A DNA stretch of 64,000 nucleotides from an uncultured Methanoregulaceae archaeon (GTDB lineage Archaea > Halobacteriota > Methanomicrobia > Methanomicrobiales > Methanospirillaceae). This document shows positions 42,001 through 48,000 of the stretch, piece after piece. The position numbers are program-made. The stretch is from positions 2,097,252 through 2,161,251 of the forward strand of contig OY970343.1 in the NCBI GenBank assembly GCA_963717525.1, in the 5' to 3' direction. How positions within the stretch are numbered: position 1 is the stretch's first letter; every line of letters starts with the position of its first letter.

Positions 42001-45000
42001 CGAATCGAAGGGAAGAGGTGGCGAGAGCTGGTCCGGGGTCACAAACGATCCCATGGCGGCCTGCCCCGGGGAGAGCACATCCGTGTACCGGGAGACCTGG
42101 GTGTTCTCCTGCGACGATGTGGCCAGTTCCTGCCGGAGATTGTCCTGCGTGACGCCGAGCGTGGGTGAGGGTGTGGGGACGTTTTCTACGGGGCCCTGCG
42201 GTACCGGCGGTCCCCGCCCGGGCGCCACCTGGATAAACTGGCCGTTCTGGGGGGCAGAGAAGTTGAGCTCGCTCTCCACCGACTGGGTATCGATCCAGAG
42301 CGGGTACGCGGCAAAGAGGTCGCTCTCGTTCGCGTAGACGCTGTTTTTGTACTGCACATAGTCCCGTTCGAGAACGTTTTCCGCCGACAGCCCCTTTTCC
42401 GTCGGGCTTGCGGAGATGACACCTTTGATTATAACAAGATCGTACACCCCGTTGTTGCCGGCAAGTTCGGGATCGCTTGCCTGGTAAACCGTGAACCGTG
42501 CATCGGATGCAAAGATGGCGGCGACCTTGGGATCGTCGACACCGATCCGGTACATCCCGTCCTGGATATGCAGGCCGCTCTCCGCGGCAAAACCGGTGAC
42601 AAGGATAAGGAGCACAAAAAGGACGATCGCGACCGGCAGGATATTACGCGACATGACCGAGAAAGTCTTTTTCACTTCCCAGCGTGCGATGGTCGCAATG
42701 TTCCTGCCTGCACTCATGGCTGCACCTCCGGAAAACACCGTAGATAACCAATAGGTGTGGGGAACGGACTCAAATACTGATCGGTGTTAACACGACGGCG
42801 CTCTCCACCCTGCACTCATCCCAACGTATATGTCCCCCTCCCCTCAAGTCTACAGTACAACAAAAGGCCGGCCTTCCGGGGACCTGACGTGATCGCAGCA
42901 AGCAGCCTGACCAAGCGTTACGACGGATTTACCGCTCTTGACGAGGTGAGTTTTGCGTTTCCCGGCGCCGGGATCTTCGGGATCGTGGGACACAACGGGG
43001 CCGGCAAGACCACGCTGTTAAAGATCATCGCGGGGCTGGTCGCACCAACCTCCGGCGAACTGTCAGTGAACGGGATCGATGTTGTCCACGATCCTGTGGC
43101 TCTCAAGGAGACTCTGGGCTACCTTCCCGAGGAGTCACGGCTCTACGAGACGATGACCGCGGAGGACTATCTCGCGTTCTTCGGCGAGATCTACGGGATC
43201 GATAAAGAGGAGATCACCATCCGCACCCGCCGGCTCTTCACCGCCCTCTCTCTTGAGACCGGCGGGAAGAAGATGGGCGAGTTTAGCAAGGGCATGAAGC
43301 GCAAGACCGCGATCGCCCGCTCGCTCATCCACGACCCCTCGTTCCTGGTCTACGACGAGCCGACGAGCGGGCTCGACCCGATGACCTCACGTTTCATCGC
43401 TGGGTACTTAAAAAAACTTAAAAGTGAGGGCCGGACCATCGTGCTCTCGGCCCATAACCTGTACCAGGTCGAGGCTATCTGCGACCGGGTGATGATCCTC
43501 CGTCGCGGGAAGGTGGTGGCGCTGGGCACCATGGACGAGCTCCGCGAACAGTTCGGCTCGATCACCTACACGATCTGGTTTGCCCACCCCGACCCTTCCC
43601 GCATCGACCGGAACACGGTACCCTACCGGCTGGATGACCGGGGACTTGCCTGCGATGCCGGGGATATGGCCGGCCTCAATGCGTGCTCTGCAGCGATCGC
43701 GGCTGCTGGCGGGAGAGTGGAACGGATCGAGTCCCGGTACCTGTCACTGGAAGAGATGCTCGTCGCGATCGGGGAGTAGGAAAAACGTTTTTTTATTCGC
43801 AGCCGGCAGCCGGGAGGTGTCATGCGATCCTGACTGCTGCGCCGCTGTTGCGTGCGGAGGTGACGAGCGTGGTTCCACCTCCGATTTCCTGAAGGTATGA
43901 CTGCGCCGCCCTCTCGATATCCTGCATCCCCGTATCGCAGATGGCATACAGGGTCGGGCCAAACGAACTCATACCGGCACCAGCAGCCCCGGCCGCCCTC
44001 ATTGTTTCAAGGAGGCCGGGGACCTCCCGGGGCTGGAAGGAGAGCTCGATCTTCTTGAACCCGAGCGACTGGATGGCATTGACGGATGTGCCAAACATGT
44101 CGAGATCCTTTTCGGCGATGCTGGGAAGCATCCGCATCAGCACCTCGTGGCAGAGCGTCCTGACCTCTTCGAGCGGGACCGGGCAGCAGGCCCGGAAGAT
44201 CTCCTGCTCCCGCGTCCCACTCACCCCTTCCGGGAGCGCCGGGGTCGCAAGCAGGATACGCCAGTCCCGAGGAAAATCGTGACGCATCAGGACCGGCGGC
44301 GGCCGCACGCCTTTTGACGCGGAGGACGGCGCAAAGCCGGTCTTCTCGCAGCCCGGCCCGAACCGGTGGCCGCCGTCAACGATGAAACCCCCGTGATCGA
44401 ATGCTGCCGTACCGATACCGGAGGTCCCGCCGCGCCCGGCCATCCGGGCGAGGTCTGACGTGGACAGGGTTGTGCCGAACAGTTCACAGCAGGCCCGGGC
44501 CGTTGCAAGCGCCAGCTGGGAACCGCTTCCGAGACCGCGGTGGGCAGGGAAGTGTTCACGTACCGTGATCGAGACGCTTCCACCGGCCCGGAGTGCAGCC
44601 AGCACATTCTTTGCACACTCCCGGACCAACGCCGCGGTCCGGCTGTCACAGCCGCGGACTTCGAGGGTAGGGCTTGCCTGCGCCTCGAGAAGGACCGCGG
44701 GGTCGTCAAGCGTGATCCCTACCCCTCCGTCGACCCTTCCAAGGCTGCCATTCATATCGAGCAGCGTAACATGGATACGCGATGGTGTTCGTACAATCAC
44801 CCTGTGCTCGTCGAGGAACTGGCTGTACGGGAACTGCTCTTCAATGAAGATGAGCGGCTCGCCGCCGTGGATAATCCGGTACTGGCGAGAGAGCAGCGGC
44901 TCGTTTTTACAGATGGAGAAGATCCTGTACATGTCACCTTTTGCCGGGGTTACCCGAGCGGTGAGGATCTCCCGCCGGGCTTCGATATGGTGGCGCTCGA

Positions 45001-48000
45001 TGATCTTTCCGATGGGAATGTCAGCACGCATAAGATCGTCTCGGAACTCCGGTGCCAGCCGGGCAATGGGTGTCTGCGATTTCGCGTAGACCAGCACCTC
45101 ACCGGTGGCAGCGTCAAGGAGCTCCACGACCCGGTGATTCACCGCATCGCCCGGTGCAACGCCGAGATGTTCTGCGGCATCGGCATCGGCTTTCACGACC
45201 TCCTGTTCGCGGGTCCGGACCGCAACCGAATGACCGGTCACTGATTCCAGCAGCTGCGTGACCGACCCATCGGTGCCAAGGAGAATTTTCTGGATCGGTG
45301 AGAGCCTGCCTACCTGACCCTCAATCTCGTAAAGACAGCGTGCGATATCCATCCACACAACCTCCGTGCCGGATCACATAAGGTTACGGATCCGGTGCCG
45401 GGCGTTACCGTGATGGTTGAGTGTTCAGCGGCGCGAGGGGGGCTGGTGTTTGCCTTTCCCGTTCCGGGAGGTCGCTGGTGCCGGAGCGTGCTGCACCTGT
45501 GCGCCGATCAGTTCAATGGCATCCGCGGTGAGCCGGCCTTTGAGGCCGATCACGTCGCCGGCCCGGACCATGCTCACCTTTGCAGTGAGGACAAAACTTT
45601 CGCTGAAGAGATCGAGGCCGCCTTTTGAAAAATCGTCAAGCCCGATGGGGATACAGGGAACGTCGGACGGAGGCCTGCTGCTGACCGGGCAGACACAGAG
45701 GTCTCCGTTCTCCTTCGCCGAAACGACCACGGCGGGCCGGGTCTTTGCGCCGTGCCTCTCCTCAAACGGAACCGGGGCAAGGATCACGTCGCCCCGGACA
45801 TAGCGTCCCATGCCCGGAATATCCGGCGTTTTGGGGCATAAGTCCATTGATCGTTTTTCATGAGATCATCCTGTCCCGTTTCGCACCGGAGCGAAAGGAA
45901 TGGCCGGGTTCTGGTAACAGGAAAACCCTTTACGTGCGGCAGCTGATGATCGCATCAAATCGGAGGTGGTGGAAGAATGCAGTTTGCAGATTGTGTGATG
46001 CAACGGTATGCAACGAAAAAGTTTGACGGCAGGACGATCCCCGAAGCAAAGGTGAACGAGCTGGTGGATCTGGTGCGGTTTGCACCGTCGGCGCTGAATG
46101 TCCAGCCCTGGAAGATCAAGGTGATAACGGACAAAAAAACAAAAGAAGCGCTCTGCCCGGCTTCCAACGACCAGGAGCAGATTACGACCTGTTCGCACCT
46201 GCTCGTTTTCTGTGCGGACGCGGATTACGACAGCCTGATCAAAAGGCTCGGGGCGCTGATGACCGCAAACCACATTCCCAAGGACGTGGTTGACAGGGTG
46301 ACCGGCATGGCAGCACAGTTTGCCGCGAGCATGTCCAAAGAGCAGCAGGCCGCGTGGTCACAGGCGCAGACCTATCTTGCACTGGGAAACGCCCTGAACG
46401 GCGCAAAGTCGCTCGGCTTTGATTCCTGCCCGATGGGCGGGTTCAACCCGAAAGAATATTCGAGGATCCTCAGGATCCCGTCGCATCTTACGCCGGTGAT
46501 GCTCTGCCCGATCGGGTACGCAGCGGACAAACCGGGGCTGAAGATCCGGCACGCCAGGGAAGAGATTGTGTTCTGAATGCGGGGAACCCTCGCATTTTCT
46601 TATTATTTGCTCGGTTACAGGGCCATACCTCCACCAATCATTTCTTTGATATCGACGAGAGCCAGGCCTGGGGTCCTTCGGCCCGGGTGCGGCTCTCGAA
46701 GACCGCCGGCCTGATGTAATTGATGGACCACCCGTTGCGGAAGCTGTCCTGTATCTCTTTCTGTGTTACCCTTCTCGGGCCGTACCCGCCTGGCTCCCGT
46801 TCGGAAAAGCAGAGCATGAAGTATTTCCCGGCCGGGGAGAGGATCGCTGCAAGGTTCTCCACGAAGACCGGGCGGTCTTCATCGGACAGGGTATGGAAGA
46901 GCCCTGAATCGGTGGCGGTATCGAACTTCCTGTCAAGCTTTGAGAGATCCAGTGCGTTCAGGACAAGAAAATGCACCGAGAGTCCTCTTCCGGCAGCCTT
47001 CTCCTGTGCCTTCTGGATCGCAAGCGGGGCAGAGTCGATCCCCCACACCTCGTGCCCTTCTGCTGCGAAGAAGAGGGCATGCTCCCCGGTTCCGCATCCT
47101 ATGTCAAGGACAGATCCTGTAATCTCTCTTCTCCGGGCCAGTTCAACGAACTCCTTCTGGGGCCGGCCGATGTCCCAGGGAGGGGTGCCCTGGTATGCCG
47201 CGCCAAAGAAATCCATACTTCACGATAGTTCTTGGTATACATATTGTTATTTCTCCACGAAATGGCGGCTTCCGGAGCGCCACCATTCGACCGGCACGAA
47301 ACGATACCGGCAATCCTTCCTTCGCGATGGAAAAGGTGTCATCACGAGGGCAGATTACCTATCGTTCAGATAAGATGAGGCGATAGTTATCCCCCACTTG
47401 AGTGATTGATTCCGCCGCCCCCGACGGGGCGCCCCCGCGGCGGATCAGTAACAAATGTTCGCATAATCTCCTTGCCCCGCCGTGCCCCGGAGGCGGGTGA
47501 CCCTCATAAATACCCTGCTATGGTCCCGGAACAGCCGTAAAATCGGCTCATCCTGCTACATAAATACCCCTGTTTCCCGCATAGAAATGAAATACCGGCG
47601 GATCTCCCATATTTTCAGGAAAAAGCGGTCCGGTTTTTGCCTGGCACAGAACCCCTTTTATTTTCGTCTCTAGACGGGTTCCAGGCCATCCATAAGCCCC
47701 TCATGACCAGTTGTTCTTTCCCATTTTCGCAATCAAAGGAACGCCACTAAATTGCACGGTTTTTTCCTGTTTTAAATGCCCTGTTTCCGAAAATACCGGT
47801 TTATATGGAGAATTTTGTCGGGCGTTGGCACCGCTTCCACTGGAACCCTCCGGGCACGGATCCGTCCAGGGAATTCTCCGTCGAAGAAGGAAATCATGGG
47901 AGACCGCAGGTCTGGCCTCTCCCTTTCTCGCGCCCCGCACCCCCTACCGGAGCCCTTATTTGATCCCGGACAAGAGTGAGAAAGAGAAATGACACGCTGC

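Follow-up and report, generated by a model that had tools for sequence, protein, structure and literature searches.

A chorismate lyase-like domain fused to the first pathway enzyme likely makes the aromatic ring of methanopterin in a Methanoregulaceae archaeon

The chorismate pyruvate-lyase UbiC of Escherichia coli (1fw9; PF04345) is subject to product inhibition and feeds ubiquinone synthesis via UbiA. Lyases of a second family, PF01947, are stand-alone proteins: the Rv2949c-like enzymes serve phenolic glycolipids and the cyanobacterial enzyme PlqC (Sll1797; NF037993) serves plastoquinone, and Rv2949c has been assayed and acts on chorismate. Genetic and biochemical work has identified Sll1797 as a chorismate lyase (PMC12998194). 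The family also has stand-alone archaeal members, namely AF1396 of Archaeoglobus fulgidus (2nwi, DUF98), deposited as a hypothetical protein, and MJ0807 of M. jannaschii, an organism for which we found a PF01947 match. For methanopterin, the aryl precursor used in vivo is disputed, with pABA from a pre-chorismate intermediate on one side and 4-hydroxybenzoate on the other; in the literature searched we found no paper naming an enzyme that supplies it, and none linking the PF01947 family to this cofactor. The RFAP synthases (MptG; MTH0830, MJ1427, AF2089; NF040726) combine PRPP with pABA or 4-hydroxybenzoate in a decarboxylative C-ribosylation (PMC6787355), and the route is described as running from beta-RFH-P through beta-RFSA-P to beta-RFA-P (White 2011, as cited in PMC3261824).

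The window, the whole 64,000-nucleotide stretch of DNA analysed here, contains a gene from an uncultured Methanoregulaceae archaeon in which a PF01947 domain and such a synthase are joined. Positions count from the first letter of the window.

43820..45352, minus strand: fused gene for a lyase-like domain and an RFAP/RFH-P synthase (protein P0001, 510 aa), a single ATG-started frame without stops
44825..45280, minus strand: chorismate pyruvate-lyase-like domain, PF01947, aa 25-176, with a chorismate-lyase/UTRA fold (Pfam and structure model)
43835..44797, minus strand: beta-ribofuranosylaminobenzene/-phenol 5'-phosphate synthase domain, aa 186-506, GHMP fold (NF040726 and Foldseek)
45425..45847, minus strand: PemK/MazF-like protein, the upstream neighbour, outside the pathway and a marker of the syntenic site
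42784..43779, plus strand: ABC transporter ATPase, the convergent downstream neighbour and a marker of the syntenic site

An earlier note on this DNA had read both domains in one frame, and the 510-aa minus-strand ORF bears this out, with each half above its Pfam or NCBIfam cut-off. The N-terminal part matches Pfam Rv2949c-like (PF01947) over model positions 1-143 of 149 (E 8.9e-24; 84.6 bits against a curated cut-off of 22), and the synthase half matches the RFAP synthase equivalog NF040726 over positions 2-326 of 327 (392.4 bits against 328), with GHMP_N at aa 242-321 and GHMP_C at aa 408-478. The fusion is not an assembly artefact, because each of the 120 P0001 homologs among the matches listed (65-96% identity, 94-100% coverage) has PF01947 as well as PF00288, and because 82 of the 84 fused alignment rows show the same distance, 20 residues, between E172 and R192. 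With the 84-row alignment, AlphaFold2 modelled the full protein at a mean pLDDT of 92.0 and a pTM of 0.89; a model of the lyase-like domain has a pLDDT of 96.9. The pTM of the full model, the fixed spacing, the KM of 4.5 mM that MTH0830 has for pABA and the product inhibition of UbiC suggest that the protein may benefit from holding its two active sites close together.

We consider it likely that P0001 starts the aryl arm of methanopterin by converting chorismate to 4-hydroxybenzoate and then to beta-RFH-P, the N-terminal domain acting before the synthase. The former likely takes pyruvate off chorismate to leave 4-hydroxybenzoate, and the latter is predicted to join this acid to PRPP with loss of CO2, as the start of the aryl-ribitol arm. 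Its fusion to the first enzyme of the pathway and its intact binding-site residues make the N-terminal domain the likely source of the aromatic ring of methanopterin. These residues were located with hhalign:

45257..45265, minus strand: S30-V31-T32, aligned with S-M34-T of UbiC
45131..45133, minus strand: R74, aligned with Arg76 of UbiC
45008..45016, minus strand: P113-I114-G115, aligned with P-L114-G of UbiC
44972..44974, minus strand: R127, aligned with R127 of UbiC
44837..44839, minus strand: E172, aligned with Glu155 of UbiC

R127 of UbiC, Arg126 in mature numbering, binds the pyruvyl carboxylate. The 4-hydroxybenzoate site of UbiC consists of Arg76, Glu155 and the backbone amides at Met34 and Leu114 (PMC7879144), and all four positions are matched in P0001, by R74, E172, V31 and I114, in a profile alignment to one UbiC sequence (probability 92%, E 6.6e-7) at about 18-22% identity. 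R74, G115 and E172 are invariant in 106/106 rows of relatives, T32 is present in 46/46 archaeal-type rows and R127 in 84/84 fused rows. A newly seen short subfamily (about 20% identity) also keeps R74, G115 and E172, and the set T, R, PIG, R, Y and E is invariant over 25 rows that include this subfamily at only 18-26% identity; degenerate members occur in three genomes (G004, G026 and G036). The domain thus belongs, as its sequence supports, to the PF01947 chorismate pyruvate-lyase family with the product-binding residues of UbiC intact. It lies far under the cut-off of the cyanobacterial chorismate lyase equivalog NF037993, which it matches weakly (E 4.6e-9; 36.4 bits against 175), and P0001 gave no match to PF04345 at E 0.01. 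When the lyase profile was searched against the PDB, UbiC was not reached by sequence; matches to caveolae proteins were treated as coiled-coil noise.

The fold itself is less specific. By VIA, the model of the domain resembles UbiC (1fw9) with a Z of 14.3 (rmsd 2.7 A, 149 residues), but this fold is common to the UTRA effector domains that GntR/HutC regulators carry (DasR, YvoA, PhnF; 8-20% identity), several of which outscore UbiC (Z 17.4 for DasR). Only the nearest solved relative, AF1396/2nwi (E 1.5e-37), matches the fold better than the best of these, with a Z of 23.2, an rmsd of 1.6 A and 49% identity across 160 aligned residues. Pfam also reports a UTRA match in P0001, confined to aa 28-74 (E 5e-7; 30 bits against a cut-off of 23.8; model 70-116 of 141), and the only paper found on AF1396, a data-mining study, predicts a transcription regulator from its UTRA likeness (PMC3089730). 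The domain might accordingly be a non-catalytic ligand module that binds the aryl acid or a product, either to regulate the synthase or to supply it. We regard this as improbable, because the profile alignment to UTRA domains is poor, with probabilities of only 16% and 17% for the E. coli domains of MngR and PhnF, so that by sequence profile the domain is far nearer UbiC, and because the pocket Arg and Glu are invariant across branches sharing 20% identity. Moreover, no winged-helix DNA-binding domain was found in P0001 or in 18 scanned relatives, and none is listed for 81 long proteins with the lyase-like domain, 80 of which carry a GHMP domain. Of the 76 carriers, 42 have the gene unlinked and with this one domain, as with stand-alone enzymes.

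The synthase half retains the features of its family:

44735..44758, minus strand: D199...R206, putative counterpart of the essential D19/R26 of MTH0830, judged from spacing, position and conservation rather than direct alignment
44510..44548, minus strand: PAHRGLGSGSQLA, phosphate-binding loop (PRPP), by motif match

The loop contains PAHRGLGSGSQ, comparable to the RFAP synthase motif PX3GLGSSAA, and in MTH0830 the D19/R26 pair is essential (both from PMC6787355). P0001 keeps the GLGS loop, GRGGTSGIG and the D/R pair, R206 being present in 84/84 fused rows and D199 in 77/84, with E in the other seven. The top Foldseek match of the domain is ForT (8ap0; E 1.9e-29, TMt 0.90). Unlike the assayed MptG enzymes, P0001 has an additional N-terminal domain of 183 residues, and whereas UbiC works with UbiA, the partner here is a C-ribosyltransferase. 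We infer that 4-hydroxybenzoate is the substrate of this synthase half.

The tie between the domain and methanopterin synthesis extends well beyond one fusion. Among 151 Halobacteriota genomes, 107 of which have a strong synthase, PF01947 occurs in 76, and in each of these carriers a synthase matches with an E of at most 3.2e-77. The two genes are fused in 27 of the 151 and side by side in seven. The synthase-then-lyase order that the earlier note gave for family f10 was reproduced in 5/5 genomes, and L043 and L056, two loci from Nitrososphaeria, likewise have the genes next to each other. On the synthase tree, the starred branches force at least three changes in adjacency, which falls in three separate synthase clades; the backbone of a quick lyase tree is open, so we claim no order of events. 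No lyase was found at 60 of 80 named synthase loci within the DNA examined, up to 4 kb on each side. A complex prediction for the stand-alone synthase and lyase pair of L021 from single sequences scored 0.00 and was counted neither way. A true chorismate lyase could also make 4-hydroxybenzoate for a prenylated aromatic, with the fusion reflecting mere gene neighbourhood, and two short-subfamily contexts (L165 and L163, family f17) do adjoin a UbiA-family or geranylgeranyl-reductase-like gene. This seems very unlikely to us given that fusion or adjacency with the synthase recurs in separate clades, that none of the 76 PF01947 carriers lacks the synthase and that the lyase was found in 0/23 genomes from families f13, f21, f22 and f24, whose synthase homologs are all weak.

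The short subfamily fills 17 of 31 apparent gaps, bringing the lyase to 93 of the 107 strong-synthase Halobacteriota; with two profiles it was not found in the other 14, nor in G154, G155, G196 and G308, and since the second profile cut the gaps from 31 to 14, the remaining absences may shrink too. Elsewhere it is present in 39/40 Methanococci, with intact motifs, in 101/111 Methanobacteria and in 1/201 Thermoproteota. The synthase was expected to be lost along with the lyase in Methanobacteria, but this was not seen: all 10 genomes in which the lyase was not found keep the synthase. The earlier note had the fusion in five of five other Methanomicrobiales; the larger sample has it in 18 of 24, and the other six are without both domains, an MptH-like gene being kept in the four of these tested. 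At 18 synthase loci of lyase-negative genomes, scanned for a replacement 4-hydroxybenzoate source, the neighbours covered by the scan were housekeeping or unnamed genes, with no chorismatase among them. The claim of the earlier note that this would settle where methanogens get the aromatic precursor therefore goes too far. We propose instead that in archaea the aryl ring usually, though not always, comes from this lyase, and that lineages without it likely salvage the aryl acid or use another enzyme.

The enzymes around chorismate bear on the substrate. The genome has one chorismate synthase, one chorismate-binding enzyme (PF00425), which lies within trpE-G-D, and one class-IV aminotransferase of branched-chain-type sequence; no ADC synthase (PabB) besides TrpE was found in this 87% complete genome, nor did tblastn with E. 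coli UbiC or DUF1464 give a match. Overproduced UbiC is said to complement pabC (Nichols and Green, in 1992). The domain could thus cleave 4-amino-4-deoxychorismate to pABA in place of PabC, the synthase making beta-RFA-P directly, and RFAP synthases do use pABA in vitro (PMC6787355). We nevertheless give this very little credence, for TrpE, in its operon, is the one chorismate-binding enzyme that the genome has, and exactly one PF00425 gene is present in 71/76 carriers (none in three, two in two). Taken together, adjacency in three clades, carriers that always have the synthase and a genome without PabB support a much stronger tie to methanopterin synthesis than one fusion would.

An enzyme of the same pathway might instead act on an earlier shikimate-pathway intermediate, with the branch point before chorismate. 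This would fit the conclusion reportedly reached by Porat in 2006, that in Methanococcus the branch to the arylamine leaves the pathway ahead of chorismate; the gene is present in nearly all Methanococci and should therefore matter there, and the linkage evidence fits equally well. We think it unlikely, since the pocket matches the 4-hydroxybenzoate site of UbiC, the assayed relatives Sll1797 and Rv2949c use chorismate, every carrier tested has chorismate synthase, and a small leak past the aroD block could cover needs at the level of a cofactor. Co-loss of chorismate synthase with the lyase is uninformative, because chorismate synthase is present in all genomes tested (111/111). The proposal of the earlier note that the domain is the missing 4-hydroxybenzoate enzyme gains from its PF01947 family, the UbiC residues, the genomic tie and the lack of PabB, with lyase activity itself as the likely rather than demonstrated part. 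Its description of the MJ0807 family as uncharacterised is right only in part, since stand-alone members already carry the name "chorismate lyase" in public records, given by similarity; no activity is shown in the literature searched.

A 450-aa protein of the PurM/ThiL superfamily, whose copy in this genome lies at G000:C1:1243250-1244563, occurs in 107/107 strong-synthase Halobacteriota, and in five lineages its gene lies beside that of the lyase or of the synthase. Gene context raises the tentative and rather doubtful possibility of a complete front end for methanopterin, in which 4-hydroxybenzoate comes from the lyase and beta-RFH-P from the synthase, and the PurM-family protein, as an ATP enzyme, activates the phenol oxygen so that nitrogen replaces it (phenol to aniline). 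The main alternative for this protein is an ATP-dependent step further along the pathway, and it stands as a candidate enzyme for a subsequent orphan step.

Methanopterin is, to our knowledge, essential to all methanogens. RFAP synthase is pursued as a target for methane mitigation (PMC6787355). The surprise here is limited, because the chemistry is known and databases already attach the lyase label by similarity. The fusion nonetheless names a candidate for the enzyme that supplies the aryl precursor, one that is present in most methanogens searched, and if the proposal is true it would provide a function for proteins of the AF1396/MJ0807 type.

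The lyase-synthase fusion is genuine and conserved. An earlier note held that the two domains share one frame, and this is borne out by the open reading frame, by both domains in 120 of 120 listed homologs (source names, Methanoregula) and by a spacing of 20 residues between E172 and R192 in 82 of the 84 fused rows. The relevant features of the window are as follows.

43820-45352, minus strand: fused gene (protein P0001), 510 residues, no internal stop
aa 25-176: Rv2949c-like domain (Pfam, E 8.9e-24)
aa 242-321 and 408-478: GHMP domains (Pfam)
aa 186-506: NF040726 synthase (NCBIfam, 392 bits; cut-off 328)
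45425-45847, minus strand: PemK/MazF-like gene immediately upstream of the fusion, occupying this site also in G058, a genome of the same genus
47989-49044, plus strand: protein in which an AN1-like zinc finger at the N-terminus is joined to a hydrophobic stretch and, at the C-terminus, a CAP domain

The structure model behind the earlier note was unusable, and AlphaFold2 with alignments now gives the whole protein a pLDDT of 92.0 and a pTM of 0.89 (84 rows), with 96.9 for the N-terminal domain (106 rows). Judged by family score, fold (ForT 8ap0, E 1.9e-29) and motifs, the C-terminal domain is an RFAP synthase, the only one above the NF040726 cut-off in its genome (G000). Its motifs are a GLGS phosphate loop and a residue pair, D199/R206, with the spacing of D19/R26, which are essential in MTH0830 (PMC6787355).

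The nature of the N-terminal domain is a matter of weighing fold against sequence. The model adopts the chorismate-lyase/UTRA fold, with Z scores of 23.2 to AF1396 (2nwi), 17.4 to the sensor DasR and 14.3 to UbiC; because DasR outscores UbiC, the fold by itself cannot tell enzyme from sensor and tips slightly toward the sensors. A regulatory role is predicted for AF1396 in the only paper found to name it (PMC3089730). A non-catalytic ligand module would suit the fold scores, but we think it improbable given that the family profile matches E. coli UbiC with 92% alignment probability versus 16% and 17% for the effector domains of MngR and PhnF, the two UTRA domains compared. Sequence thus favors an enzyme. 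In UbiC, 4-hydroxybenzoate is contacted by Arg76 and Glu155 and by the Met34 and Leu114 amides (PMC7879144), positions that align with R74, E172, V31 and I114 of the fused protein. R74, G115 and E172 are kept in 106/106 rows, and T32, S92, E124 and Y158 in all 46 archaeal-type rows. Sll1797, a PF01947-family relative, is a chorismate lyase according to PMC12998194; the fused protein scores 36 bits against the equivalog of Sll1797-type lyases, where 175 are required.

We therefore consider it probable, on predicted activities, that the N-terminal domain carries out UbiC-type chorismate lysis and hands 4-hydroxybenzoate to its fused partner. Chorismate would enter the UbiC-type pocket, and pyruvate would be eliminated as the ring is aromatized, which is the chemistry of UbiC. 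The resulting 4-hydroxybenzoate would then reach the synthase, which would displace the pyrophosphate of PRPP with loss of CO2. Since UbiC is subject to product inhibition (PMC7879144) and the pABA KM of MTH0830 is 4.5 mM (PMC6787355), tethering the two sites could be beneficial.

Chorismate synthase is encoded in G000, and the PabB/PabC route is not visible in this 87% complete genome because its sole chorismate-binding enzyme lies in trpE-G-D and its sole class-IV aminotransferase looks by its motifs like a branched-chain enzyme. Exactly one chorismate-binding enzyme is found in 71 of 76 lyase carriers, and two to four in families f13, f21, f22 and f24. That the domain is instead an ADC lyase is the least probable reading we considered. 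The published route, White 2011 as cited in PMC3261824, starts from a phenol and runs from beta-RFH-P, phosphorylated, through beta-RFSA-P to beta-RFA-P by way of PurB.

Porat's 2006 work is said to have concluded that the Methanococcus arylamine is not derived from chorismate, and Methanococci carry the lyase gene with intact motifs despite this. Either the mutant was leaky at the cofactor level, as we suspect it may have been, or the enzyme in archaea acts on a substrate from earlier in the pathway. Joint loss of aroC and the lyase was looked for, and all genomes examined had chorismate synthase. Action in the same pathway on another substrate would reconcile the two observations, yet we regard it as rather unlikely beside chorismate lysis.

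Linkage of the two genes was surveyed across the phylum in 151 genomes, namely G000 and 150 others sampled at a completeness of at least 90%. PF01947 occurs in 76, each of which also has a synthase with an E value of at most 3.2e-77; that 4-hydroxybenzoate is destined for another product is very improbable in our estimate. In counts that include related, non-independent genomes, lyase and synthase are fused in 27 carriers (19/25 Methanomicrobiales, 6/6 of family f23, 2/2 of f12), adjacent in seven (5/5 of f10, G015 and G095) and unlinked in 42 of the 76. Within genus g22 only G095 has a strong synthase, and only G095 has the lyase. Among the best 80 of 570 confirmed synthase loci, ranked to one query, 15 are fused (Methanomicrobiales, Methanotrichaceae, Methanoliparia), five adjacent (two of them Nitrososphaeria) and 60 without a lyase nearby. 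On a FastTree of 92 synthases, with duplicates counted once (L032 has the proteins of L021, and L022 those of L033), the starred branches require at least three changes for adjacency. The tree is compatible with a single origin of the fusion, and an ancestral operon with many losses is possible. The lyase family is present in 39/40 Methanococci, 101/111 Methanobacteria and 1/201 Thermoproteota; the ten Methanobacteria in which it was not found all retain the synthase. A GHMP domain is listed in 80 of 81 long proteins with a lyase domain.

Strong synthases, defined after data inspection as those with an NF040726 E value of at most 1.4e-76, occur in 107 genomes; G004 and G036 narrowly miss this line at about 1e-72. 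The canonical lyase is found in 76 of these and a divergent or short one in 17 more; three profiles found none in 14. The short subfamily, missed by Pfam, is 18-26% identical to canonical rows and retains T, R, PIG, R, Y and E.

L142:3068-3478 (P0282) and L150-L171: short lyases, 122-140 aa, families f14, f17, f11 and f18, pocket residues retained

Degenerate members in G004, G026 and G036 have SIE/SVE in place of PIG and lack T32. One short homolog bears the source name Methanocella conradii hypothetical protein, protein P0173 contains two lyase-like stretches, and two Methanobacteria have tandem copies (G429:C14:75812-76907, G449:C29:92216-93311), the second more divergent. Neither synthase nor lyase was found in six Methanomicrobiales (G058, G097, G102, G107, G112, G132; 97-99% complete). 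In single-contig G058 the fusion is cleanly gone from the syntenic site, with both flanking neighbors shared (G058:C1:2355565-2355654, L112).

Clusters uniting lyase and synthase often hold two further genes.

G000:C1:1243250-1244563, minus strand: 450-aa AIRS/PurM-superfamily protein, no family name of its own
L021:2917-4272, also L035, L043, L056, L080, L114, L117, L119: the same PurM-like protein
L021:5704-6759, also L022, L034, L035, L036, L039, L080: DUF1464, following or flanking RFAP synthase in several archaeal lineages

The PurM-like gene keeps company with synthase, lyase, MptE, MptH-like, FolE2 and DUF447 genes; in a Micrarchaeia locus it sits among mptE, mptH-like and folE2, and in G153 it and the lyase are arranged head-to-head. 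It exceeds no NCBIfam cut-off (best ThiL, 79 versus 184 bits), and its Atlas names are automatic only. It occurs in 113 of the 151 genomes, namely all 107 with strong synthases and the six synthase-less Methanomicrobiales (MptH-like gene in 4/4 examined), and in none of the 38 others. Twelve of 201 Thermoproteota have it, all with a synthase-family match, which it adjoins in two; it was not found in 59 of the 71 Thermoproteota with such a match, two above cut-off among them. Because its superfamily uses ATP for oxygen activation, the protein may act at the phenol-to-aniline step or, alternatively, at a phosphodiester step further along, and we lean toward the later step or salvage because the six synthase-less genomes retain it. 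DUF1464, not found in G000, is a candidate for a further pterin-pathway step. The MptH-like gene of G000 (G000:C1:1821701-1823108) is matched in two separate frames, a frameshift that is real or assembly-derived.

Both domains are of already known kinds, and databases name stand-alone lyases "chorismate lyase". In the open literature searched, we found no paper linking the lyase family to methanopterin; White 2011 and Porat 2006, outside it, may mention MJ0807. 4-Hydroxybenzoate is reported to be the in vivo precursor of the methanopterin aryl unit, and a lyase making it would be exactly what the fused synthase needs. The fusion is real, and the function predicted for it is directly testable.
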